DNA from: Alphaproteobacteria bacterium
GTDB taxonomy: Bacteria; Pseudomonadota; Alphaproteobacteria; UBA8366
DNA length: 64,000 nucleotides
Direction of reading: 5' to 3'
Assembly: GCA_965228695.1 (NCBI GenBank)
Contig: CBDDIB010000002.1
Coordinates: forward strand, 1,369,089-1,433,088
Position 1 is the stretch's first letter; every line of letters starts with the position of its first letter. The position numbers were made by a program, and so were the translations under genes. The notes below the pieces were generated by a model, which did no database searches, was not told the DNA's origin, and saw nothing but the letters and a program-made list of their open reading frames with translations. Shown piece by piece: positions 3,293 through 56,338 of this stretch.

Positions 3293-4393
3293 TTAGGTTT
3301 GCCCGACAGGGCCGGGGAAGACCGGCGGCATGTCCTCGTCGGGCGGGGTCAAATCCGCACGTATTCGTGGCAGGCATTCCGGATGCTGCCGCTGTAAGAA
3401 GGTAATTAGACCCTCGCGGAGATCGCAGCGCAGGTCCCAAGCGTCAGGTGAATTACGCGCACTGACGAGGGCCCGCAGTTCGACCGTACGATCGGTTGTG
3501 TTCGTGACCTGCAATCCACAGACTTTCCCGTCCCATTTCGGATGATCTTTCGCAAGTCGTTCGAGTTCCTCACGCATCTTGCCGACCGGGACGGTGTAGT
3601 CCGCATGCAGGTAGATGGTTCCCAGGATGTCGGCCGTCTTTCGCGTCCAGTTTTGGAATGGCTTTTCGATAAAATTGTTTAAAGGGACGATTAGACGCCG
3701 CTGATCCCAGATTCGGACCACCACGTAGGTCATCGTGATTTCTTCTATCCAACCCCATTCTCCTTCGACGATAACCACGTCATCGACACGAATGGGCTGG
3801 CTCAAGGCAATCTGCACGCCGGCAATCAGATTCGCGATCGTGGGGCGGGCGGCGAGACCGATAACAATGCCGGCAACGCCTGCGGAAGCGAACAGGCTAA
3901 GCCCGAGGTGACGAATCTCGGGAAAAGTCATGAGGATCAGTGCAATGGTCACGATGACGATAACTGCCGCCGCGATCCGGTTGAAAACCATTACACGCGT
4001 GCGGACCTCGCGCTCCGCCAAGTTATCCGCGTGATCAATCCGAAAACGGGCAATAACAATCTCCCCGAGAGCGCGCAATAGACCGAGAACACCCCAACCC
4101 GCGGCGGAAATAAGCACGATGATCATGATCTGTTGAATTACCGGCAATACGACATCCGGCAGCGTCACGAACTGCAGTGTCAATAAAACCGCCGCCGCCG
4201 GAAGGAAAAGCCCGGCCGGCCGGTGAAGATTGGTGATTACCGCATCGTCAACAGGCGTCGAGGTGCGCCGCGACAGCCGCGTGGCCAATGCCCTAATCAC
4301 GCGATGTATCACGTAGCCGGCCAAAGCGGCACTGCATAAGATCAGTGTGCCGACCAACCACGGACGGACGCCGTCAAAATCTTCGAATGTCAT
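3293..4393 (-). CDS. Mechanosensitive ion channel (MscS family)
   Basis: 366 aa with several N-terminal hydrophobic helices, followed by the MscS beta-domain signature NLIAGVQIALSQPIRVDDVVIVEGEWGWIEEITMTYVVVRIWDQRRLIVPLNNF. Confidence 0.85.
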   Translation of the reverse strand: MTFEDFDGVRPWLVGTLILCSAALAGYVIHRVIRALATRLSRRTSTPVDDAVITNLHRPAGLFLPAAAVLLTLQFVTLPDVVLPVIQQIMIIVLISAAGWGVLGLLRALGEIVIARFRIDHADNLAEREVRTRVMVFNRIAAAVIVIVTIALILMTFPEIRHLGLSLFASAGVAGIVIGLAARPTIANLIAGVQIALSQPIRVDDVVIVEGEWGWIEEITMTYVVVRIWDQRRLIVPLNNFIEKPFQNWTRKTADILGTIYLHADYTVPVGKMREELERLAKDHPKWDGKVCGLQVTNTTDRTVELRALVSARNSPDAWDLRCDLREGLITFLQRQHPECLPRIRADLTPPDEDMPPVFPGPVGQT

Positions 4394-4432
4394 TCCGATC
4401 TCTTGCGGTTCTGGTTTTCGGGCCGATCAAAT

Positions 4433-5824
4433 TCAAAACGCCGTTTTCCTCTCTGGCAAGCTTTCGAGCGCGCCAATAAAGCTCCTGTGCCATTTATTCG
4501 CGTCTTCCTGCCGAATTCTATTCATGAGTGCCTGCTGGCGCCGTTGGCGTTCTTCAAGCGACATGGTCAATGCCTTTTGTAAAGCCGCGGCCATCTCGTC
4601 GATGTTGTATGGGTTGACGATCAACGCTTCCTCCAGCGCCTCTGCGGCGCCGGCGAATTTCGACAGCACCAACACACCGGGGTCGGCTTCATCCTGAGCC
4701 GCGATATATTCCTTGGCCACCAAGTTCATTCCGTCTCGCAAGGGACTTACAAAACCGACCTGGCTGCCCCTCAATAGCGCTGCCAAGATTCGGCGCGGAA
4801 TCGCGCGATGGATGTAGCGTACGGGAGTCCAATCGAAATCCGCGAACTGGCCGTTAATCGAACCCGAAATTGTTTCCAACTCCGTGCGAATATCCGAATA
4901 CGCTTCTACATCTTCTCGGGTCGGTGGCGCAATTTGCATTAGCGTGACGGATTTCTCATTTTCCGGATACAGTTCGAGGAGTCGGCGAAAGGCCTGCAGC
5001 CGGCCGGGCAACCCCTTGGAATAATCCAAACGGTCAACGCCGATGATTTGGCGGCGCTCGAGTGTGCGTCGGCGCAGCGTCGCGATTTGCTCGTCGGCTT
5101 CTTGCGTGTGCGCCATGGCGGAGAAGGCCGCCACATCGATCCCAATAGGAAAACAGCCCGCGACCACATCTTCTCCGAAGGCTCTTACGGGATCGCCCGG
5201 CTCAGTTGGACCTTCGCTAAATTTTTCGGCAGCGCGGCTGAAGTTGGCGCGATCGGTTTCAGTTTGAAATCCAACTAGGTCGTAGGCGAACAAAGAACGG
5301 ATCAGCCATTCGCTTTCCGGCGCGGCCACAAGGATGTCCGGCGGCGGGAAAGGAATGTGAAGGAAGAATCCAATCCGCTGACGACACCCGCGTTTGCGCA
5401 GTTCCGCCGCCAAGGGAACCAAATGATAGTCATGAATCCAGATTACGTCTTCGGGTTCAAGATGCGGCAATAAGGCGTCGGCGAATTTTGAATTTACGCG
5501 TTTGTATCCCCTCAAGAACGCGGGCTGAAAATCGACCAGATCGAGGCGATAGTGCAATACCGGCCACAGGACACTGTTAGAAAACCCGGCGTAATATTCA
5601 CGGTAATCTTTTCTTGTCATCGGTAGCGTAATGATCGTCGCCTGATCGATCTCTTGGATCCGCGGCGGCACGCGGGTTCCTTGCCCCACGGTCTTTCCAT
5701 CCCAGCCAAACCAAACGCCACCCCGCGCCTTGAGCGCGTCACCCAGCCCAACGGCAAGACCACCCGCCTGCGCCGGATCCTTGAGATCGGCAACCCGATT
5801 GGAAACGACGACCAGCCTCGTCAT
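4433..5824 (-). CDS. otsA: Alpha,alpha-trehalose-phosphate synthase
   Basis: Start moved to ATG 5824 (MTRLVVVSNRVA...GGLAVGL...VWFGWDG), with GGGAG 8 nt upstream. GT20 family motifs run throughout (IWIHDYHL, GFFLHIPFP, VSPLRDGMNLVAKEY). Confidence 0.9.
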   Translation of the reverse strand: MTRLVVVSNRVADLKDPAQAGGLAVGLGDALKARGGVWFGWDGKTVGQGTRVPPRIQEIDQATIITLPMTRKDYREYYAGFSNSVLWPVLHYRLDLVDFQPAFLRGYKRVNSKFADALLPHLEPEDVIWIHDYHLVPLAAELRKRGCRQRIGFFLHIPFPPPDILVAAPESEWLIRSLFAYDLVGFQTETDRANFSRAAEKFSEGPTEPGDPVRAFGEDVVAGCFPIGIDVAAFSAMAHTQEADEQIATLRRRTLERRQIIGVDRLDYSKGLPGRLQAFRRLLELYPENEKSVTLMQIAPPTREDVEAYSDIRTELETISGSINGQFADFDWTPVRYIHRAIPRRILAALLRGSQVGFVSPLRDGMNLVAKEYIAAQDEADPGVLVLSKFAGAAEALEEALIVNPYNIDEMAAALQKALTMSLEERQRRQQALMNRIRQEDANKWHRSFIGALESLPERKTAF

Positions 5825-6233
5825 TCGCGGAACTCCCAAATTTAACCAGCTTCCAAGACCGGCCGCATAATCCAGCGCATTGCAGTGCGCATCACGCAAG
5901 AACCAAATTCATATCACCGTCGAACGACATAACGCGTGGGGGCAAGGGGCCGACGCCAAGCCCGCCGTGATACACGAAGACTCGCGGTCTTGTTGGTAGG
6001 CTTGTTCGAATACGGATATTGGCCGACATATGGGTGTCTCGAAGCGATGACCGCTATTCCGCTGAAGATGGACGTTAGGCCGGGGGTCAAAACGGTCACT
6101 ACTACGAATGCCGCACAGGGTGACAGTCCCGGTGGCTTGCGTTGAACTGGATATTGCCTTTGGTCTGTTCCGTGCAAAGGTCGCGAAGCCCCGCGCCCGA
6201 TTGGCATACGATCGCGCAACCATCGCCGCCACC

Positions 6234-7400
6234 CTAGGCCAGCACCCCCAATTCCGGCTCGGCCCGGCCCGCGGCTACCCGGTTGCAATGAAACCGCTCC
6301 AGATCGATCGTCTCGAACCGGCGGTCCAGGATCAGCTCCGACAGCGCCCGTCCGGCCGCCGGCGCGTGTTGCAGGCCGTGGCCGCTGAAACCGGTGGCCA
6401 TCAGCAGGTTCTCCGGCGCGCCGGGCCAGGATCCGATCAGCATGTTGCCGTCGAAACGGTTGTAGGCGTAATGGCAGGGCCACGCGTTCATGACCTTCAG
6501 CGTCTCCAGCGCCGGGGCCAGCCGCGCGAGTTTCGGCCAGAGCTGGGCCTCGAAGATGTCGTGGTCGACGGTCCAGTCGAACCTGCCGGCGCGGCTGAAG
6601 TCTGTGTTGCCGCAGATGAAGCCCTTGCCCTCGGGCCGGATGCTGACCGGCTGGCCGTCGCGGGTCAGCGGGGTGACGCCGAGCGATTCGGCCGGTTCGA
6701 AATAGAATGTCGTTCGCTGCAGCGGTACCACCGGGATTTCGAAGCCGGCGATCCGGCAGATTTCATTTGCCCACGCCCCGGTGTTGTTGACCAGGGTCTG
6801 GCAGGGCATGCGACGGCCGTCGGCGAGTTCCACGGCGCGCACCAATCCCTCGGAGATTTCGATGCCGGTCACTTCGCCCTCGATATAGTCGGCACCCAGC
6901 GCGCGCGCCTTGCGCCGCAGTCCGGTCAACGCGCCATGCGGGTCGAGCCAGCCGTCGTTCGGTGAAAAGACGGCGCAGGTGACGGTGTCGGTGCGGAAGC
7001 ACGGGTGCAGTTCTCCCACGCCGGGCCCGTCGAGCAGCCGCACGTCGCAGCCCATGGAAAGCTGATATTCGTGATTGGCCCGCATATCGGCGGCCTGCTC
7101 ATCCGTGTTCGACAGGAACAGATAGCCATGGCGGTAGAAGTCGAGATGGGCCGGTTCGCCGTCAACCGCCATCAGTTCGGCGAAATTGCCGTAGACCTCA
7201 TGGCCGTAGCGCGACATCCGGATGTTCTCTTCCTGGCTGAACAGGATCCGCACCCCGGCGTTGGAGCGGGCCGAGGCGGCGTGTTCGTAGGTCGGATCCC
7301 GCTCGATCACCGCGACCCGCAGCGCCGGGTCCCGGGTCAACAGGTGATATGCGGTGCTGCTGCCATGCAACCCGCCGCCGATGATGATGATGTCATACAT
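6234..7400 (-). CDS. FAD-dependent oxidoreductase (DAO / amino-acid oxidase-like family)
   Basis: Start at ATG 7400 (MYDIIIIGGGLHGSSTAYHL, a GxGxxG dinucleotide fold), with GGAG upstream. C-terminal FSGHGLQHAPAAGRALSELI is typical of DAO-family enzymes. Confidence 0.8.
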   Translation of the reverse strand: MYDIIIIGGGLHGSSTAYHLLTRDPALRVAVIERDPTYEHAASARSNAGVRILFSQEENIRMSRYGHEVYGNFAELMAVDGEPAHLDFYRHGYLFLSNTDEQAADMRANHEYQLSMGCDVRLLDGPGVGELHPCFRTDTVTCAVFSPNDGWLDPHGALTGLRRKARALGADYIEGEVTGIEISEGLVRAVELADGRRMPCQTLVNNTGAWANEICRIAGFEIPVVPLQRTTFYFEPAESLGVTPLTRDGQPVSIRPEGKGFICGNTDFSRAGRFDWTVDHDIFEAQLWPKLARLAPALETLKVMNAWPCHYAYNRFDGNMLIGSWPGAPENLLMATGFSGHGLQHAPAAGRALSELILDRRFETIDLERFHCNRVAAGRAEPELGVLA

Positions 7401-7654
7401 GGAACAACTCCGAGTCAGCGTCCAGCGGCAAATTGGTGCGCGGGGACGCCAGGCGCCTTGAGACACGGGCGTGCGTTGGCTTGCGGGATTATCGGCTCGA
7501 TATCCGGCCCTGTCGAGATGACGTTGCGGCGGGTGGGCGAACGCCTCCGGCCCATCAAAGGCTTGCCGGTGCTAGTTGTAAAATTTCCAGGCTACCTCTC
7601 ATGGCCAATTGGAGTGTCGCACGCTCATTTGCATAATCTGCCGGGGAGGATGCG

Positions 7655-10309
7655 ATGAAGCCGACCGCTGGAGTTCTTGCAAAACCCTATCAGACAATCC
7701 ACGAGCACATCCGGTACTGGGCCCATTACGACCCGGACTCTCCGGTATTCGTGGGGGAGGGCATGCCGCCGCTTTCCTATCGCGGCCTGGTAGAGACCAT
7801 CGATACGGTCGGTGTCACACTCAACGAGAGTGGCTTTGGGCGCGGTGACAGAATCGCCGTCGTGCACCAGGATGGGCGCCGCATGGCGGCGGCCCTCGTC
7901 GCGATCGAGAGTAACGCGACCGTCGTCCCCATGAACCCCGACGGCATTCTCGGTGAATTCGCCCTTCAACTGCACGATATGCGGGTCGATGCGGTCGCGA
8001 TCGCTGCGGACATGGACACGCCGGCCCGCGCCGCCGCGGCGGAGCTCGGGCTGCCGCGGTTCGACATTCGGTCGGACGGCCATGGTGCGATCCACCTCGC
8101 GCCGCCCACCGAAGGCCGCGAGACTCCCTGCGAGAAACCGGGTCCGGCGGAACCCGACGACGTCGCGGTGCTGCTCGCCACATCCGGCACGACCTCGCAC
8201 AGCAAGATCGTGCCGCTCCGCCAGCGCGTCTTGGCGATTCGGTGCGCCCGCTCGTCGCGGCTCCTCGGACTCTCGCCCGACGACCGCTGCCTGAACCTGT
8301 TGCGGCTTTTTCACAGCGCGGGTCTCGCAACCTCGTTGACCGGCGCGCTCGTTTCGGGGGGCAGCATCGCCTTTCTGACGGATACGAGTGTTACCGGCAT
8401 TTTCGACACGCTGGAGAGCGAACAGGCCACATGGGTGGGCGGCGCCTACGCGCATTACCACGCCATCCATCCGCATCTGGCGGCGCATCGCGAGACCATC
8501 GAGCGGGTCGCGGCGAGGCTCCGTTTCATGCGCGCGGGCACGGGTGCCCTTATTCCGGAAATCGCTGCGGACTTGGAACAGGTATTCGGCGTGCCGGTCT
8601 TGGCCTCCTTTGCGTCGACGGAAGCCGGCATCATCGCCGGCGACACGCCCGACAACACCCGCCCGGACCGGGCCAGCGTCGGACTCCCCTTTCCGGATGA
8701 AATCGCCATCGTCGATGACGAAGGCGAGGCGGTGCCGCGCGGCGAGAGTGGCGAGATCGTCGTCAAGGGTGTCGAGATATTCGACGGATACGAGAATGAC
8801 GATGCCGCCAACCGGCTCGCCTTCGACGGCGATTGGTTCCGAACCGGCGACATGGGCTATCTCGACGAAGACGGCTACCTGTTCCTTGCCGGCCGGATCA
8901 AGGAGTTGATCAACCGCGGCGGCGAAAAAGTGTCGCCGGGTGAAATCGACAATGTTCTGCTCGAGCATCCCGGCATCGCCGCCGCCGCCGCCTTCCCCGT
9001 CCCGCACCCGACGCTCGGCGAGGACGTTGCCGTCGCCGTCGTCCCGGCGGAAGGCGCTTCGATCGGCGAAGCCGCCGTGATGACCTATCTGCGCGACCGG
9101 TTGAGCGAGCGGAAGCTGCCCCGGCAATTGATCTTCACCGATGCAATCCCGAAGGGCCCTACCGGCAAGTTCCAGCGCCACAAGCTTGCGGATATATTCT
9201 GCGCCCCCGACGGCGCGGACGACAGCGCGGACGACGGATCGGGCGACGACCGGCCCGCGACGCCCTTGGAGGCGCAGCTCCAGGGACTGTGGGCCGCCTC
9301 TCTCGGTCACGACCATGTCGGCTTGCACGACGACTATTTCCAACTCGGCGGCGATTCGCTGCAGGCGGTCGAACTGTTCCTCGACATCGAGAAGACGCTC
9401 GGCCGGCCGTTGCCGCGCTCCATCCTGTTCGAGGCCGCGACGGTCGCCGAGATGGCCCAACGGATCGGCTCGACCGCCACCGCGCATTGCGTTGTGCCGA
9501 TCCAGCCGAACGGATCCCGCCCACCCCTGTTCTGCGTCCACGACGTCAACGGCCATGTCCTGAACTTTCGCGCATTGGCCGGCCGTTTGGGGCAGGGGCA
9601 GCCGGTCTACGGTGTCCAATCCGTGGGTTTGGACGGCAGCGAAGCGCCGCTCACCCGGATCGAGGACATGGCCACCCGTTATGTCGCCGAAATCCGCGCC
9701 GTGCAGCCGATCGGTCCCTACTATCTCTGCGGCTACTCGATGGGCGGCTGGATCGCCTATGAGTTGGCCCAACAGCTCATGGCCGCGAGACAGCGTGTCG
9801 CCTTCCTTGGATTGTTCGACACGCCGTCCCGGCAAGGACCGCGCCGCGCAACACTTCGGCAATGGTTCGGCCATCACGTCTCGGCGATGGCGGCAATGAA
9901 GGCATCGGACATCACGCCGTATCTGGGTCAGCGGGCGCGGAACCTCGCGGAGTTGAGCCGAACCGCCGTACGCTCCCGGTTGTTCGATGCCGCGCACGCC
10001 GTCGGCGCGGCGCCGGGCGCGGGCTCTCCGGCCCGCATCGCCGACGCCAACGGCCATGCGATACGGCACTACGAAATGCGTCCCTATGCGGGCGACGCCG
10101 TGCTGTTCAAGGCGACGCCGTATGCGTGGACGCACCGCAAGGCGCACGACGGGTGGCGCGACCTGATCCGTGGGCATTTTGAGACATTGCCGATCCCCGG
10201 CACCCACGGCGATCTCCTGGAGGAGCCGCATGTGCGGAAGCTGGCGGCCACGCTCTCAACTTGCCTCGCCGCGCGGCAATCCGACCGAAAACGCGCCAGC
10301 GCGGCTTAA
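7655..10309 (+). CDS. NRPS-like tridomain enzyme: adenylation (acyl-AMP ligase) - carrier protein - thioesterase (A-T-TE)
   Basis: 884 aa, with GGGGAGGA before the ATG.
- AMP-binding cores: LLATSGTTSHSKIV, FRTGDMGYLDEDGYLFLAGRIKELINRGGEKVSPGEID, PKGPTGKFQRHKL.
- Carrier motif: YFQLGGDSLQAVEL (Ser codon 9355-9357).
- Alpha/beta-hydrolase TE: PLFCVHDVNGHVLNF...YYLCGYSMGGWIAYE (GxSxG).
- No condensation domain. Confidence 0.85.
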   Translation: MKPTAGVLAKPYQTIHEHIRYWAHYDPDSPVFVGEGMPPLSYRGLVETIDTVGVTLNESGFGRGDRIAVVHQDGRRMAAALVAIESNATVVPMNPDGILGEFALQLHDMRVDAVAIAADMDTPARAAAAELGLPRFDIRSDGHGAIHLAPPTEGRETPCEKPGPAEPDDVAVLLATSGTTSHSKIVPLRQRVLAIRCARSSRLLGLSPDDRCLNLLRLFHSAGLATSLTGALVSGGSIAFLTDTSVTGIFDTLESEQATWVGGAYAHYHAIHPHLAAHRETIERVAARLRFMRAGTGALIPEIAADLEQVFGVPVLASFASTEAGIIAGDTPDNTRPDRASVGLPFPDEIAIVDDEGEAVPRGESGEIVVKGVEIFDGYENDDAANRLAFDGDWFRTGDMGYLDEDGYLFLAGRIKELINRGGEKVSPGEIDNVLLEHPGIAAAAAFPVPHPTLGEDVAVAVVPAEGASIGEAAVMTYLRDRLSERKLPRQLIFTDAIPKGPTGKFQRHKLADIFCAPDGADDSADDGSGDDRPATPLEAQLQGLWAASLGHDHVGLHDDYFQLGGDSLQAVELFLDIEKTLGRPLPRSILFEAATVAEMAQRIGSTATAHCVVPIQPNGSRPPLFCVHDVNGHVLNFRALAGRLGQGQPVYGVQSVGLDGSEAPLTRIEDMATRYVAEIRAVQPIGPYYLCGYSMGGWIAYELAQQLMAARQRVAFLGLFDTPSRQGPRRATLRQWFGHHVSAMAAMKASDITPYLGQRARNLAELSRTAVRSRLFDAAHAVGAAPGAGSPARIADANGHAIRHYEMRPYAGDAVLFKATPYAWTHRKAHDGWRDLIRGHFETLPIPGTHGDLLEEPHVRKLAATLSTCLAARQSDRKRASAA

Positions 10310-10461
10310 CGGTCCATGGGCAGGCCGAAGAGTATTCTTGCCCTCGGACTGTATCCCTGCCGGGCAAAGTCGCTTGACCAATCCGGTTCCTTCCCTACAT
10401 CTTCGGAAAGGCGAATTTAAACGCCATCCGCGCCGTTCGGCGCAGCAACGGTAGCGGGCTT

Positions 10462-10641
10462 ATGTTTGGCATCTGGATCGTTATTCTCTTCGGCATCATT
10501 CCGGCCGCCGCCGGCGTCGGGTTGAGCTACGCGTTTTCCAAGGAAGAAACGCCGTCTCCCAAACGGCTGATTATCGGCGGCGCGATCGGCGCGGTGGTCG
10601 GACTCGCGCTCGGCATCGTGCTGGTTCAATTCACGCCCTGA
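10462..10641 (+). CDS. Small (59 aa) two-helix membrane protein, below the ORF-track length cutoff
   Basis: My hand translation gives MFGIWIVILFGIIPAAAGVGLSYAFSKEETPSPKRLIIGGAIGAVVGLALGIVLVQFTP*. It has two hydrophobic segments and G/C-rich third codon positions. The competing antisense ORF 10417..10665 is Arg/Asp/Gly-rich junk. The RBS is weak. Confidence 0.35.
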   Translation: MFGIWIVILFGIIPAAAGVGLSYAFSKEETPSPKRLIIGGAIGAVVGLALGIVLVQFTP

Positions 10642-10755
10642 CGGCCGCCCGGGCGCTGTACCCACCGTTTCGCCACGCCCTGATTTGTGCCGCCGTTCGC
10701 CGCGATGCTACCAATGCATCAACGGCTTTTTCATGCCCAACAGGAGAGCGAACGC

Positions 10756-11817
10756 ATGTCCACGGTGGAAATCCTCGCCATTCAGCCGGTGTCCGACGCC
10801 GAGCGCAGCCGTATTGAAGCGGTCGACAGCTCGATCCATCTGACTGATGCGGGCGGTTGGTTCGACGGCGAAATCCGCGAGGGCTGGCCCGAGTTCACGA
10901 CGCGGCGCTACCTCGCGCCCGACGCCAACGGCCAGGGCACGCGGGAAGAGCGCGACGCCCTGTTGGCCAACGCGGAGATCATCCTCGGCGGGTTTCCCTA
11001 TCCGCTGGAGTTGCGCGGCCGTGCGCCGAACCTGAAATGGTTCCACCAGCGCCCCGCCGGGGCGAGCAATTTGCTGCGCGGCGACCTTTGGGGCAGCGAT
11101 GTCACGGTTACCACGTCGCGCGGATTCGGCAACACGCTGCCGATCGCGGAATACGTGCTCGCCAGCATCCTTCACTTCGCCAAGGGGCTGCATCGCGTCG
11201 AGGTCGACCGGTCCTCCGGACTGCTAGACCACCGGCCCTACAAGGCGCTGTTGATCGAAGGGAAGACGGTTTGCGTGATCGGGGCGGGCGGTATCGGCTG
11301 CGACGTGGCCAAGGTGTGTTCGGGCGTCGGGATGCGGGTGGTCGGGACCCGGCGGCGGCCGCTGGCCGACGGCGAAGCGCTGCCGGACGGTTTCACCTCG
11401 TTGCACCCGCCGGAGGATCTGCATCGCCTGCTGGGCGAAAGCGACTTTGTCGCGGTGTGCTGCCAGTGGACGCCCGAGACCACGGACCTGATCGGCACGG
11501 AGGCCTTCGCGGCGATGAAGCCCGGCGCGATCCTGGTGAATGTGGCGCGCGGCGAGATCGTCAATGAGGACGCCCTTGTTACCGCCTTGGCCGAGGATCG
11601 CATTCGCGGCGCCGCGCTCGACGTCTATGTGGGCGAGTTCGATGCGGCGCCGGATGAACGGTTGTGGTCCGATCCGCGCGTGATGATCACGCCGCACACG
11701 TCCGGCGGGTCCGACGAAAGCCGCCATCGCGCGATCGACGTCTTCTGCGACAACCTGGACGCTTACCTTAAAGGCAAGCCGTTGATGAACGTCATCGATT
11801 GGGATTTGGGATACTGA
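10756..11817 (+). CDS. D-isomer-specific 2-hydroxyacid dehydrogenase family protein
   Basis: Start at ATG 10756 (AGGAGA 10743-10748). NAD-binding GKTVCVIGAGGIGCDVAK. Family motifs VNVARGEIVNEDAL and ITPHTSG (catalytic His). Confidence 0.85.
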   Translation: MSTVEILAIQPVSDAERSRIEAVDSSIHLTDAGGWFDGEIREGWPEFTTRRYLAPDANGQGTREERDALLANAEIILGGFPYPLELRGRAPNLKWFHQRPAGASNLLRGDLWGSDVTVTTSRGFGNTLPIAEYVLASILHFAKGLHRVEVDRSSGLLDHRPYKALLIEGKTVCVIGAGGIGCDVAKVCSGVGMRVVGTRRRPLADGEALPDGFTSLHPPEDLHRLLGESDFVAVCCQWTPETTDLIGTEAFAAMKPGAILVNVARGEIVNEDALVTALAEDRIRGAALDVYVGEFDAAPDERLWSDPRVMITPHTSGGSDESRHRAIDVFCDNLDAYLKGKPLMNVIDWDLGY

Positions 11818-11910
11818 TGCAGCCGGCGTACGTAGTGCATTACTAATTGCCGGCGAAATGCGCGATGATAAAGACACGTCACAACGAATAACGATAGGGA
11901 GAGAGTCGCC

Positions 11911-12828
11911 ATGGATGGGGGTTTCGTTCGGGATAAGGTCATTCTGGTCACCGGTGCCGGCCGCGGGATCGGAGCGGAAATCGCCAAGCTGGCCGCGTCC
12001 GAAGGGGCGAAGGTCGTCGTCAACGATCTCGGCAGCACGGTCGACGGCGACGGCGCCGATGCGACGCCGGCGCAGCAGGTCGTCGAAGAGATTACGTCCA
12101 ACGGCGGCGAGGCCGTGGTGAACGGCGGCAGCATCGCCGATTGGGACGACGCGCAGGCCATGGTGGCGCAGGCGGTCGACACCTTCGGCCGGATCGACGG
12201 CGTCATCAATGTCGCGGGGATTCTTCGGGACCGTATTTTTCACAAGATGTCGGCCGAGGAGTGGAGTGCCGTGATCGGCGTCCATCTCACTGGGTATTTC
12301 AACGTCGCTCGTGCCGCCGCCGAGCATTTCCGGAAACAGTCGTCCGGCGCGATGGTGCATTTCACGTCGAATTCCGGATTGATCGGAAATATCGGGCAGG
12401 CCAACTACGCGGCGGCGAAGATGGGTACCGTGGGCCTGTCGAAATCGATCGCGCTGGACATGGCGCGCTACCGGGTGCGGTCGAACATCGTATCGCCGTC
12501 CGCCTTCACGCGGATGATCGAGACGATCCCGACCAACGATCCGAACAAGGCGTCGCATGTGGAACGGCAGAAACGCATGCTGCCGGAAAAGATCGCGCCG
12601 CTTTGCGTCTATCTGATGTCCGATGTGGCGGAGGAAATCTCCGGACAGATCTTCTACGTCCGCGCCAACGAGATCATGCTGATGAGCCAGATGCGGCCGA
12701 TGCGCTCGGTCCATCGCGACGGCGGCTGGAGCTGCCAGACCTTGCACGAGCACGGCATTCCGGCGCTCAAGGCGAGCTTCTACGAACTGGAGCGGTCGCG
12801 TGACGTCTTTACCTGGGATCCGGTCTAG
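11911..12828 (+). CDS. SDR family oxidoreductase (3-hydroxyacyl-CoA dehydrogenase-like)
   Basis: GGGAGAG RBS. VILVTGAGRGIGAEIAKLAASEGAKVVVNDLG, NVAGILRD, and YAAAKMG (YxxxK). 305 aa. Confidence 0.85.
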   Translation: MDGGFVRDKVILVTGAGRGIGAEIAKLAASEGAKVVVNDLGSTVDGDGADATPAQQVVEEITSNGGEAVVNGGSIADWDDAQAMVAQAVDTFGRIDGVINVAGILRDRIFHKMSAEEWSAVIGVHLTGYFNVARAAAEHFRKQSSGAMVHFTSNSGLIGNIGQANYAAAKMGTVGLSKSIALDMARYRVRSNIVSPSAFTRMIETIPTNDPNKASHVERQKRMLPEKIAPLCVYLMSDVAEEISGQIFYVRANEIMLMSQMRPMRSVHRDGGWSCQTLHEHGIPALKASFYELERSRDVFTWDPV

Positions 12829-12857
12829 CGGCGGCGCCGGCGGACAGAAGGGTTCAC

Positions 12858-13709
12858 ATGGCGATAGAAGTACGGAAACTCGGCGAGCCGCTCCTGGCCG
12901 AGCTGGTAGGCTTGGACGTAACGAATCCCGCCGATCCGGACGTCTGGGCCGAGGTCGAACAAGCCTTTCTCGATCACAACGTTTTGGTGTTCCGCGGCCG
13001 GATGATGACGGCGGCGGAGATGGTGCAATTCGCCGGGCAGTTCGGGCCGCTCGAACCGCATATCACCAAGAAGTACAACCACCCGGATTTCGAAGAGCTG
13101 ATCGTGATGAGCAATGTGGACGCCGCGGGCAAGATCGATGCGCTCGGCGCGAAACGCGGTACGCGCTGGCACACGGACATGTGCTATCGCGAGGTGCCGT
13201 CGAAAGGCACCATGCTGCACACACTGGAAATCCCAGACGAGGGCGGCGATACCCTGTTCGCGAATATGTATCGGGCGCTGGAGGAAATGCCGGCCGCGCT
13301 CAAGGCTCGGATCGAGGGACGGCATGCCACCTTTCGGTACGGCGGGCGCAAAGCTGTCGGGCGGGCGCGGTTGGAGACGGAAGACCGGGAAGCCGAGTTG
13401 GTCGCGCATCCGATCATGCGGCCGCATCCGGAAACCGGCCGGCTGTCGGTATACGTCAATCCCGCGCATACGGTCGGGATCGTCGGCATGGACGACGATG
13501 CGGCGCAGGATCTCTTGCAGGATATCTACGCCTGGTGCAGCCGCCCCGACTTTCAGGCACGGCACCAATGGCGGTTGGGCGATACGGTCATCTGGGACAA
13601 CCGGTGCACGTGGCATAAGGGCACCGGGGAGAACCCCTTGCGTCAGGCGCGGCGGTTTCTGCGCGCCACCATTGCCGACGGCACCGCGACCGTGTCGGAC
13701 GTAGCCTAG
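12858..13709 (+). CDS. TauD/TfdA family Fe(II)/2-oxoglutarate dioxygenase
   Basis: 283 aa. WHTDMCYREVPSKGTMLHTLEIPDEGGDTLFANMY carries the HxD facial triad. C-terminal WDNRCTWHKG...R is typical of the family. Confidence 0.85.
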   Translation: MAIEVRKLGEPLLAELVGLDVTNPADPDVWAEVEQAFLDHNVLVFRGRMMTAAEMVQFAGQFGPLEPHITKKYNHPDFEELIVMSNVDAAGKIDALGAKRGTRWHTDMCYREVPSKGTMLHTLEIPDEGGDTLFANMYRALEEMPAALKARIEGRHATFRYGGRKAVGRARLETEDREAELVAHPIMRPHPETGRLSVYVNPAHTVGIVGMDDDAAQDLLQDIYAWCSRPDFQARHQWRLGDTVIWDNRCTWHKGTGENPLRQARRFLRATIADGTATVSDVA

Positions 13710-18649: not shown

Positions 18650-20722
18650 TTACGCCGCGCGCATTTGCGTCAGGAACCCGTCGACCTGGGTCTGCAGGGT
18701 GTCGGCCTGCTCGGAGAGATCGTTCGCGGAGGACAGCACCTGCTGCGCCGCGGTGCCGGTCTCCGACGCTGCTTGGGTAACGGTGGAAATCGTACCGCTG
18801 ACGGTTTGCGTGCCGATTGCCGCCTGCTGCGTGTTCTCGGCGATCTCCTGCGTCGCGCTCCCTTGCTCGGAAATGGCCGTCGCAATGGTATCGGTGATGG
18901 TGTTGATCTCGCCGATGGTGCTGCCGATCCCCTCGATCGCCGACACCGCGTCCGAAGTTACCGCCTGCATCTCGGAGATCTGGGAGCTGATATCCTCCGT
19001 CGCCTTTGCCGTTTGCGTCGCCAGGTTCTTCACTTCGGACGCGACGACGGCAAAGCCTTTGCCGGCTTCACCGGCGCGGGCTGCTTCGATAGTAGCGTTC
19101 AGGGCCAGCAAGTTGGTCTGTTCCGCGATGTCGCTGATCAACTCGACGATCTCGCCGATCTTCTGCGCGGCGGACGCCAGGCTTTGCACCGTCTCGTTCG
19201 TGCGCTGCGCATCTTTGTTCGCCTTACCGGCGATTTCAGCCGATTGAGTGACCTGCCGATTGATCTCATTGACCGACGCCGATAGTTCCTCTGCGGCGGA
19301 TGCAACCGTCTGGACATTCGTGGACGCCTCCTCGGATGCCGCCGCCACCGTCGTCGTCTGCTGACTGGCATCGTCGGCCGTTTTAGACATCGATTGCGCC
19401 GTCGACGTCAATTGAGCCGAGGAAGAGGAAACGGTCTTGACAATCGCGCTCACGCGGCTTTCGAAATCGTCGGCCATCGCGTTCATCGCGGCTTTCTTTT
19501 CCGCCGCGACGCGCTCTTCTTGCGCGGCCTTCTCCGATTCCATCTTCTGCACTTCGATAGCGTTTTGCTTGAAGACCGCGATCGATTGAGCCATGCCGCC
19601 GATCTCGTCGCCGCGGTTCAGCCCCGGAATTTCGACCTCGAGATTGCCCTTCGCCAGGTGATCCATGACATCGACGCTATCGTTGATCGGGCCCGTGATG
19701 CCCCAGATGATGACGAGCGAGCCGATGACTGTAATCGAAAGCAGTGCGATGGTCGTGGTCAGGATGAGGAAAAACTGGCTCGACGACGCATCTTCGAGAT
19801 TTTTCAACCGTGTCGTGAAGTCCGACGCGAGGCGATCCTCCACTGATTTCATGAGGTTGATCTTCTCGGTGATCTTTTGAAACCAGATGCCCGCGTCGAC
19901 ATCGCCGGTACTTCCCGACGTAACGCTTTCGATGGCGATCTTCCGCATGCGATTGACGTCATCCACGGCCGCACCGCGGACGGTACTCTGATAGAAAGCC
20001 ACCTGATCGGGTGTCGCGTTCGATTTGAAGGCGTTGAAAAACACGTCCTGCATTGCGATGAGCTGAATGAATTTCTGGTGGACGGCCGGGGCGAAACGTT
20101 GCGCGCCGAAGCCCGCCGCACCCATGGCGCGCTCGATGCCGATCCGTTCCTTTGCCTCCAAGAACGCGGTGTACCCGACGACGGCATTCGCCACCTCGCC
20201 GGTTGTCGCATGTTTGCTCATGTTGTCGACGATTTTCAGCAGCTTCCCGATGGTTGGCGTGTAGTACTGCGCCATTTGCGCGACCGTGGCGGTTTGACCG
20301 GATACGCTGCTGCGCACCGGCGCGAGTTGCGTCAGCGCCGATGTCGCTTTTTGAATGATGGCGACGATGTCGCTGCCATAAGCTTCGGCATCGAATGATT
20401 TGAGCGCCGCCTTGAACTGCGTGTGACGGCTGTCCGTCTGCGCCTGCTGCTTCGGTAGTTCCGCCCGAAACTTGACGCCTTTGCTGGCGATGAACCCGGC
20501 CGACATGCCGCGTTCCTTCTGTAATTCGTGGACGAGAGCGCTAATCTTCGGCGCTACCACGCCAAGTTCGAGCAGCGCGTGCGTCTCTTTCTGTTCCTGC
20601 CATGTGCTGTAGGTCAGCATCGTGGAGAACAACAGAGCGCCGAGAAAGGGCAGCGCTAATAGTAAGTTGATTCGGCTAGAAATCTTCCAGCCGGATAGGA
20701 TGGATTTGGACCAGGCTTTCAT
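18650..20722 (-). CDS. Methyl-accepting chemotaxis protein with periplasmic NIT (nitrate/nitrite-sensing type) domain and HAMP
   Basis: Start at ATG 20722 (MKAWSKS..., GAGGGGA upstream). NIT signature [23 protein letters not shown] between two TM helices. MCP signalling hairpin [40 protein letters not shown]. Confidence 0.9.
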
Positions 20723-20879
20723 CGATTTGTCCCCTCGAAAACTTTCAAAATCAAACGTCGTCTGTCGCGTAAATTGCGCCGCGAAGAGTTCCGTTCCTAA
20801 AAATTGACCGCGCCGGCGACCGGCGATGCCTTCGGTCAATCGATTGTCTTGCTATAGCGGCATCCGACTGCCGCGTACC

Positions 20880-55312: not shown

Positions 55313-56338
55313 TTGCGGGGAAAGCGAGAGGAACCCGTGACAAAGATATTCCGGCGGCAGATCGGCGATGCGACCGCGTGGAAAAGCACCGAGATGAAAG
55401 CGCGCGACGATTGGCTCCACGTCCTGACGGAAGCCGAGGTCGGGGATCTCGACCGAGCCCTGCGCGCGGTGCAGCAGAGCGGTTTGGAAATGGCCGCGGT
55501 CACGAAAAATGATTTCCCCTTGCCGGTGTTGGAGCCCTATCTCGCCGATTTGGAGAAGACCGTGCGCACCGGCCGCGGGTTTGCACTGCTGCGCGGCATT
55601 CCGGTCGACCGATATACCGCGGAAGAGGTCTTCCTCATTAAATGGGGCATCGGCACGCATCTGGGCGAGAAGGTATCCCAGAACGCCTACGGCGACCTGC
55701 TCGGTCATGTCTACGATCATGGGCGCGATCCGAAATCCACGCGAACCCGGGGCTACCAGACCCGTGGCGAGCTGCGGTTTCATGTCGATCGCGCCGACAT
55801 GACATCGCTTCTCTGTCTGCGCACGGGCCGGAAAGGCGGATTGAGCCGCATCGTCAGTTCCATGTCCGTTCACAACGAGATACTTGCCCGGCACCCCGAA
55901 TATCTGCCGCCGCTCTATGAAGGGGTGCCCTATATCCATATCGAGGAAGCGGGCGAGATGCGAAGCTGGAAGGAGCCGGTCTTCAGCGTCACCGACGATG
56001 TTCTGAGCTGTTCCATCCGCCGCAACACGGTGCAAAAGGCGATCGAGCGGTCGGGTATAGAGATGACGCCGCTGGAGACGGCAGCCCTCGAATTTTTCGA
56101 TTCGGTGGCGGAAGATCCCGAATTCGTCCTCGAGATGGAACTCGAGCCCGGCGACATTCAGTTCGTCAACAACTACACCATCCTGCACGGCCGGACGGCC
56201 TTCGTCGACGATGCGGCGCGGGAAATGAAGCGCCATCTCGTGCGCCTCTGGCTGCGGTTCTTCTCCCCCCGTCCGACCGCCGCGTTTATCCGCGAACAGT
56301 ACAACGGAATCGAGAAGATGCTGGAGCGCGAGACTTAG
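55313..56338 (+). CDS. TauD/TfdA family Fe(II)/2-oxoglutarate dioxygenase
   Basis: 341 aa, with start TTG 55313 or GTG 55337. ELRFHVDRADMTSLLCLR carries HxD. C-terminal NNYTILHGRTAF. It begins 14 nt after the DUF427 stop. Confidence 0.8.
   Translation: MRGKREEPVTKIFRRQIGDATAWKSTEMKARDDWLHVLTEAEVGDLDRALRAVQQSGLEMAAVTKNDFPLPVLEPYLADLEKTVRTGRGFALLRGIPVDRYTAEEVFLIKWGIGTHLGEKVSQNAYGDLLGHVYDHGRDPKSTRTRGYQTRGELRFHVDRADMTSLLCLRTGRKGGLSRIVSSMSVHNEILARHPEYLPPLYEGVPYIHIEEAGEMRSWKEPVFSVTDDVLSCSIRRNTVQKAIERSGIEMTPLETAALEFFDSVAEDPEFVLEMELEPGDIQFVNNYTILHGRTAFVDDAAREMKRHLVRLWLRFFSPRPTAAFIREQYNGIEKMLERET

Follow-up and report, generated by a model that had tools for sequence, protein, structure and literature searches.

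Fungal TdiA, the fungal atromentin and polyporic acid synthetases and bacterial RalA are stand-alone, non-reducing enzymes in which an adenylation (A), a carrier (T) and a type-I thioesterase (TE) domain, the last with a Ser/Asp/His triad, follow one another with no condensation (C) domain. Their A domains activate aryl 2-oxo acids, which an aminotransferase supplies, and their TE domains condense two tethered units into quinone or furanone products. The same order of domains was found in the product of gene 7655–10309 (forward strand, 884 aa), located in a stretch of 64,000 nucleotides of an alphaproteobacterial genome (contig CBDDIB010000002.1, assembly GCA_965228695.1; hereafter the window). 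The gene is called A1 below, as the first of five paralogues in the genome (G000). It differs from the TdiA and RalA type in its A domain, set apart as a member of the acyl-CoA-synthetase branch (oxalyl-CoA synthetase, FadD7-like) through profile and PDB matches, and in its surroundings: no aminotransferase is encoded in the window between 776 and 21747, and the neighbouring DAO-family gene is conserved in genomes without the synthetase. Gene 7655–10309 would thus best be regarded as an autonomous, single-gene nonribosomal peptide synthetase (NRPS)-like enzyme and not as the core of a biosynthetic cluster, a reading to which we assign a probability of about 0.6.

The closest solved structures to the A domain are those of oxalyl-CoA synthetases (6qjz, E 6.8e-79, and 5ie0, E 1.2e-75, over aa 40–516), a group that includes Arabidopsis AAE3, Lathyrus LsOCS and yeast Pcs60 (8aff, E 2e-56). 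The hinge (loop IKEL) and the A8 stretch [13 protein letters not shown] are the same as in LsOCS, and the gating His220 and Lys505 of these enzymes are also kept. Oxalyl-CoA synthetases are free-standing (about 515 aa) and release a CoA thioester, whereas the A domain of A1 is fused to PP-binding and Thioesterase domains; because of this fusion, its own phosphopantetheine presumably takes the place of CoA as the thiol acceptor. In NCBIfam, the best matches to the A domain (aa 23–515) were the FadD7-family model NF004511 (288 bits) and the malonyl-CoA-synthetase-type model NF005702 (212 bits), ligases that have neither carrier nor thioesterase domains and whose family cut-offs (650 and 558, respectively) lie far above the scores obtained. 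All of the leading models described CoA ligases (288–173 bits), long-chain and malonyl-CoA synthetases included; the best NRPS model reached 168 bits with the T domain counted in. Among PDB entries, oxalyl-CoA synthetases scored 269 bits and NRPS proteins 158 bits, about 110 lower. The A domain is accordingly assigned on profile and structure matches to the acyl-CoA-synthetase branch of the ANL superfamily and not to the NRPS type, as a first-pass annotation made from the sequence alone had suspected when it called the domain acyl-CoA-ligase- or oxalate-ligase-like.

The T-TE half has other relatives. Acinetobacter AB3403 (C-A-T-TE, PDB 4zxh) aligned with aa 343–867 (E 2e-42), and the best PDB matches of the TE domain alone were terminal TEs of NRPS and polyketide synthase (PKS) systems, AB3403 and the Pks13 TE among them, the latter aligning over its full length (E 5e-18). 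The Pks13 TE is an acyl-transferring, not merely hydrolysing, thioesterase. A1 differs from both proteins in lacking an upstream C or ketosynthase domain and in having an A domain of another type. The best Ralstonia matches to A1 (27–29% identity), located on a megaplasmid, proved to belong to giant NRPSs as their terminal modules and were set aside. A1 is best described as an NRPS-like enzyme of the A-T-TE kind, from an uncharacterised family of a small, uncultured alphaproteobacterial lineage.

The domain order given in the first-pass annotation was confirmed by Pfam and by translation. The A domain is encoded by 7718–9169 (AMP-binding, aa 22–379, E 5e-49; AMP-binding_C, aa 430–505), and a motif beginning FRTGDMGY...[14 protein letters not shown] was located in the protein. 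The carrier domain (9275–9466; PP-binding, aa 541–604, E 6e-14) has the phosphopantetheine site Ser568 (codon 9356–9358) within LGGDSL (aa 564), and the TE domain (9521–10255; Thioesterase, aa 623–867, E 2e-30) has Ser695 (codon 9737–9739) within GYSMG (aa 693), together with Asp722 and His851, a triad that marks the TE as a hydrolase; all of these features lie on the forward strand. Conservation was scored in an alignment of 121 full-length members of the family. Ser568, Ser695 and His851 were present in 121/121 members, Asp722 in 120/121 and the catalytic Lys505 in 114/121, the remaining 7 having Arg; the ribose-binding Asp399 was invariant and Gly413 was conserved too. The gene is thus intact, with a complete and conserved catalytic apparatus in all three domains. 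It is also functional and under purifying selection, as judged from a dN/dS of 0.17 relative to an 84%-identical orthologue. No C domain was detected in the gene or anywhere in G000 (5.47 Mb in two contigs, 98% complete), and no PKS or second NRPS gene was found within 776–21747, in agreement with what had been stated at first.

The oxalate pocket consists of Val-His, Cys-Ser, Ala-Met, His and Lys, of which the Ser and the His are specific to oxalyl-CoA synthetases (PMC8905533). When the specificity residues were extracted by alignment to 6qjz and 5ie0 with the residue list of that study, the pocket of A1 read Ser221-Ala222, Gly295-Thr296, Ala320-Ser321, Ile326 and Lys505. The oxalate-contacting Ser289 and His319 of AtAAE3 correspond to Thr296 and Ile326, the codon for Ile326 (8630–8632, forward strand) standing where LsOCS has His326. 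Position 326 is hypervariable in the family; its eight commonest residues are S, R, F, I, W, L, V and Y, with no His among these. Despite the kinship of its A domain, A1 is therefore not expected to be an oxalate enzyme. The residues Ser221, Ala222, Gly295, Thr296, Ser321 and Ile326 are smaller and more hydrophobic than their counterparts in oxalyl-CoA synthetases and so point to a small or medium aliphatic acid as the predicted substrate, possibly a 2-hydroxy or 2-oxo acid. The pocket differs in each of the five paralogues of G000; that of A3 (His222, Ser296, Met321, Arg326) looks far more dicarboxylate-like than that of A1.

The first-pass annotation had treated the gene as the centre of a possible small cryptic cluster with its neighbours, which are a divergently transcribed flavoenzyme gene (6234–7400, reverse strand) and, downstream on the forward strand, a row formed by a 59-aa membrane peptide (10462–10641), a D-isomer-specific 2-hydroxyacid dehydrogenase (2HADH; 10687–11817, start codon uncertain), a short-chain dehydrogenase/reductase (SDR; 11911–12828) and a TauD/TfdA-family dioxygenase (12858–13709). 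Comparison with four genomes of the same genus (G001, G002, G003 and G004) and with L058 (P0002), a metagenomic congener and the one relative in which the gene context of an A1 orthologue was read, did not bear this out. Orthologues of A2 to A5 were present in the four genomes, and nothing more than 57% identical to A1 was found in them. The flavoenzyme was kept at the orthologous locus in G002 (94% identity) and G004 (89%), and the peptide/2HADH/SDR/TauD row was kept at 91–99% identity in the same two genomes, which have no A-T-TE gene there. In G001 the row was present and the flavoenzyme absent at the locus; in G003 the peptide, 2HADH and SDR genes were kept, and TauD was not found in the stretch compared. 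DNA comparisons delimited a single-gene presence/absence segment, 7524–10361, which takes in the A-T-TE gene, 131 bp ahead of its start and 52 bp beyond its stop; G002 has 978 unrelated bases in its place and G004 about 1.75 kb. Measured against L058, the gap in G004 runs from 131 bp before the A-T-TE start to 3 bp past the stop, a clean, gene-sized indel.

In L058 the 84%-identical orthologue and its divergent pairing with the flavoenzyme are kept, so that the oxidase/A-T-TE pair is preserved there and broken in G002 and G004. The row, however, is split off from the A-T-TE gene in L058 by 1.66 kb encoding two envelope proteins: a 17-kDa-antigen/glycine-zipper outer-membrane lipoprotein on the opposite strand, and a secreted 212-aa protein whose C-terminus (VPLPAA, a hydrophobic stretch, RRRR) reads like a PEP-CTERM sorting signal. 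The stretch L058:12754–14083 recurs as the filler in G004 (L051:10394–12150) and partly in G002. The flavoenzyme has a promoter-like site of its own (7516–7488, promoter scan) in the portion of the intergenic region that is conserved. Since the neighbours persist without the A-T-TE gene and the flavoenzyme retains this site, the neighbours do not depend on the A-T-TE gene, which behaves as a single-gene unit; the flavoenzyme and the row would be redox genes of catabolic type, conserved as a set in their own right.

Between G000 and L058, dS was 0.49 for the A-T-TE gene and 0.35–0.46 for its flanks. This likeness indicates vertical inheritance of the A-T-TE gene along with the locus, and a horizontal origin of A1 was rejected on the same ground. 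G002 is nearer to G000 than L058 is (dS about 0.25–0.37 for all genes but the 59-codon peptide), and the absence from G002 is for this reason most simply read as a loss. An identical 10-kb stretch was found in three DNA runs, possibly from the source sample. In one metagenome run, X9, short contigs 8–10% divergent from the strain were present beside the identical one over the flavoenzyme (6950–7240) and the 2HADH (10785–11154), and among the pieces listed the A-T-TE region was spanned only by the contig identical to the G000 strain; this is weakly consistent with a co-occurring relative without the A-T-TE gene.

The four other full-length A-T-TE genes of G000 are 39–56% identical to A1, and their neighbours differ from those of A1 and from one another. 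A2 adjoins a family III CoA-transferase and a convergent 2HADH, whereas the genes beside A3 encode a TetR regulator and a protein of the CMD family. A4 is accompanied by genes for TauD, a member of the PEP-mutase family, a cytochrome c and an amidohydrolase, next to era, rnc and lepB, and A5 by genes for a LysR regulator and a catalase-peroxidase (KatG). The immediate contexts of the five paralogues have no common theme, and a shared regulatory motif was sought upstream of all five and none was found. Copies in other genera adjoin a methyltransferase, an MR/MLE enzyme, a GNAT protein, a WecG transferase or another DAO protein. The A4 block (L056, G000 C2:4162975–4171787), with PGA_cap, TauD, PEP-mutase/isocitrate-lyase-family, cytochrome c, Amidohydro_3 and transglycosylase genes, lies between lepB-rnc-era and the only acpS detected in G000, is conserved in G002 and G004, and looks like an insertion into a classical housekeeping row. 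In other genera, A-T-TE genes also occur as tandem pairs or triplets: P0084, P0095 and P0099 share one 14.4-kb contig, and a tandem pair of G018 (L085, G018 C11:94469–99947) adjoins a methyltransferase, an MR/MLE enzyme and a 2HADH.

The family was found in 9/24 genomes of the same taxonomic family and, at E 1e-150 or better, in 0/300 other alphaproteobacterial genomes from about 250 genera. It is present at 3–5 copies per genome in this narrow uncultured lineage, whose members related to G000 are deposited as uncultured Alphaproteobacteria metagenome-assembled genomes. In the tree, A1 and A2 form sister clades, that of A1 having a long stem; members of the A1 clade occur in other metagenomes at identities down to 70%. 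The ESM Atlas holds the same architecture under generic names only, and a literature search on oxalyl-CoA-synthetase-like A domains fused to carrier and thioesterase domains, or on bacterial A-T-TE proteins, returned nothing on the family described here. The family is uncharacterised, and combines a CoA-ligase-type A domain with a carrier and TE pair of NRPS kind in a lineage without other NRPS machinery and with no detectable phosphopantetheinyl transferase of the Sfp type.

Chance adjacency was estimated by placing five genes at random on the large contig; thresholds for the three gene families tested were set with the data already in view, so that the p values are only suggestive. G000 encodes 101 TauD-family, 27 DAO-family, 20 2HADH and 12 Amidohydro_3 genes. 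For two or more of the five A-T-TE genes having a TauD gene no more than 3 kb away, p was 0.14. With 101 TauD and 27 DAO genes in the genome, the adjacency of either is at chance level, and a role of TauD as a hydroxylase of the tethered substrate was dropped as unsupported. The 101 TauD/TfdA genes above the Pfam cut-off amount to roughly one every 54 kb, which in a bacterium of 5.5 Mb is an extreme expansion; those of the window include 12858–13709 and one at about 55500–56250.

Several observations weigh against an autonomous single-gene enzyme. Two of the five A-T-TE genes have a 2HADH gene no more than 1 kb away (p 0.004 for two or more), and a pair of Amidohydro_3 paralogues lies near A1 and A4 (p 0.011 for two or more within 6 kb); a 2HADH is also found 2.2 kb (G018) and 5.3 kb (G017) from A-T-TE copies in two other genera. 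Between the end of the A-T-TE gene of the window and the row, which shares its strand, lie 152 bp with no predicted terminator, so that read-through co-transcription with the row may occur. Finally, the one phosphopantetheinyl transferase (PPTase) detected in G000 is of the AcpS type (C2:4171907–4172188), with no Sfp-type N domain detected; five conserved carriers of the peptidyl carrier protein type beside a PPTase of the AcpS type only are a puzzle for priming.

The adjacency of 2HADH genes, the only recurrent neighbour, could reflect a loose functional module, in which the D-2HADH would reduce a 2-oxo acid to a D-2-hydroxy acid and the A-T-TE enzyme would activate it and release it as an ester, an oligoester or a lactone, or transfer it, the other neighbours being bystanders. 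The genes concerned lie 852 bp from A1 and 99 bp from A2, and a family III CoA-transferase is also present in the A2 lineage and in G017, family III CoA-transferases being a group that includes 2-hydroxyacyl-CoA transferases. The 2HADH adjacent to A1, however, stays in place at 93–98% identity in the four congeners that have no A1, no 2HADH is found within 30 kb of 3/5 paralogues, and the 2HADH of A2 is convergent and not co-transcribed with it. Nor are the 2HADHs next to A1 and A2 sister paralogues, and the idea that an A-T-TE gene and a 2HADH gene had been duplicated together was rejected on this ground. With the post hoc choice of thresholds taken into account, we consider such a module rather unlikely. 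The part that the first-pass annotation gave to the 2HADH, interconversion of oxo and hydroxy acids for the A-T-TE enzyme, thus retains a weak adjacency signal and is at odds with the persistence of the gene where A1 is absent. The wider seven-gene scheme, with a DAO oxidase supplying a 2-oxo acid, the A-T-TE enzyme dimerising it in the manner of TdiA or RalA, and the SDR and TauD proteins as tailoring enzymes, has in its favour the C-domain-free domain order, the divergent pairing kept in L058 and the redox genes downstream on the same strand. It appears largely refuted by synteny, the neighbours being conserved in the absence of A1 and parted from it in L058 by the two envelope genes, and is further opposed by the CoA-ligase type of the A domain, the sarcosine-oxidase-like character of the flavoenzyme, the chance-level adjacency of TauD and DAO genes and the lack of an aminotransferase, transporter or regulator among the proteins of 776–21747. 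No supply enzyme is co-inherited with A1, and we regard a dedicated TdiA/RalA-like cluster as very improbable.

An oxalate-specific enzyme, whose A domain would load oxalate to form an oxalyl-S-carrier for oxalyl transfer or degradation, is suggested by the best solved relatives, by the label oxalate--CoA ligase given to several family members by JGI, and by the chance that the flavoenzyme and the 2HADH touch glyoxylate metabolism. In A1, though, the contacting His is replaced by Ile326, the Met by Ser321 and the Val-His pair by Ser-Ala, which leaves Ser to Thr296 as the sole conservative change, and the pocket of A3 suits a dicarboxylate far better; we hold it highly doubtful that oxalate is the substrate. 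A decaying or non-functional gene heading for the loss seen in the congeners would fit its absence from the four same-genus genomes searched, a dN/dS above that of all neighbours except the upstream SDR0 gene, and the lack of a detected Sfp-type PPTase in G000. The 884-codon frame is nevertheless intact with every catalytic residue kept, dN/dS is far under 1, and the clade reaches 70%-identity members elsewhere, so that decay is scarcely credible.

For the autonomous enzyme, the following route is proposed. The A domain would adenylate a carboxylic acid other than an amino acid, one that exceeds oxalate in size or hydrophobicity, and the acyl group would be passed to the phosphopantetheine on Ser568 of the same protein. 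The TE triad Ser695/Asp722/His851 would then take up the acyl group and off-load it. Since plain hydrolysis would amount to a futile ATP cycle, a bond-forming release, in which the acyl group is handed to a nucleophile, cyclised or condensed with itself, is the more probable. A bolder proposal, to which we give little credence as it stands, is that the five paralogues represent an undescribed, lineage-restricted, C-domain-free family. In it, the carrier in cis, primed by the housekeeping AcpS, would receive various small carboxylic acids from an A domain of the oxalyl-CoA-synthetase type, perhaps D-2-hydroxy acids made by dehydrogenases encoded nearby, and the TE would form a bond, giving an ester, an oligoester or a lactone or acylating an amine or a sugar; where two or three such genes stand in tandem, as in some relatives, their products might work together as a minimal assembly line. 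Genome-mining rules tag any gene with AMP-binding, carrier and thioesterase domains as an "NRPS-like" cluster, and A1 would be a case in which the tag falls on a solitary, dispensable gene surrounded by catabolic genes unrelated to it. The locus is thus unlikely to be a hidden pathway and touches no long-standing open question; the enzyme family merits a biochemical look, and its substrate and release chemistry would extend the short list of known A-T-TE reactions.

The open reading frames of the neighbouring genes were all found at the coordinates first given, and Pfam placed all but the peptide in the families listed. The flavoenzyme is a DAO-family FAD oxidoreductase of 388 aa (Pfam DAO, E 8e-61). 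Its start is most likely the ATG at 7400, which has GGAG ahead of it and agrees with a congener, whose open reading frame likewise starts with ATG and spans 388 aa; the divergent gap of 254 bp reported at first follows from this start. In NCBIfam and PDB its nearest relatives were sarcosine oxidases, the beta subunit of Pyrococcus proline dehydrogenase (deposited as sarcosine oxidase) and glycine oxidases. Apart from the glyoxylate-forming glycine oxidases, these relatives are not producers of 2-oxo acids, and the role of supplier of such an acid, once proposed for the flavoenzyme, finds no backing in them.

The 59-aa peptide is predicted to form two membrane helices and is conserved, with no Pfam family; at 97% identity in G002, G004 and L058 and a dN/dS of 0.03–0.04, it is very probably a real gene heading the row. 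The 2HADH was identified by Pfam (2-Hacid_dh_C, 2e-45), NCBIfam and PDB matches, the SDR (adh_short, 2e-42; PRK07791-like in NCBIfam) is 95–99% identical across all five relatives, and the best PDB matches of the TauD protein (Pfam TauD, 4e-60) were phenoxypropionate and taurine dioxygenases, which are catabolic types. Downstream to 21.7 kb, a Sel1 repeat protein, a GNAT protein, two proteins of unknown family, a NIT-domain chemoreceptor and a zinc peptidase are encoded, none of them biosynthetic-looking. The chemoreceptor gene (NIT-HAMP-MCP, 18650–20839) has many partial DNA look-alikes (70–75%) in all four congeners, which reflect the large MCP signalling-domain family. On the other side of the locus, 3293–6219 (an MscS-like channel, the trehalose-6-phosphate synthase OtsA and a 107-aa open reading frame) is a G000-specific segment of lower GC content (0.565), replaced in G002 and L058 by another 2.3–2.6 kb between the conserved amidohydrolase/SDR genes and the flavoenzyme.

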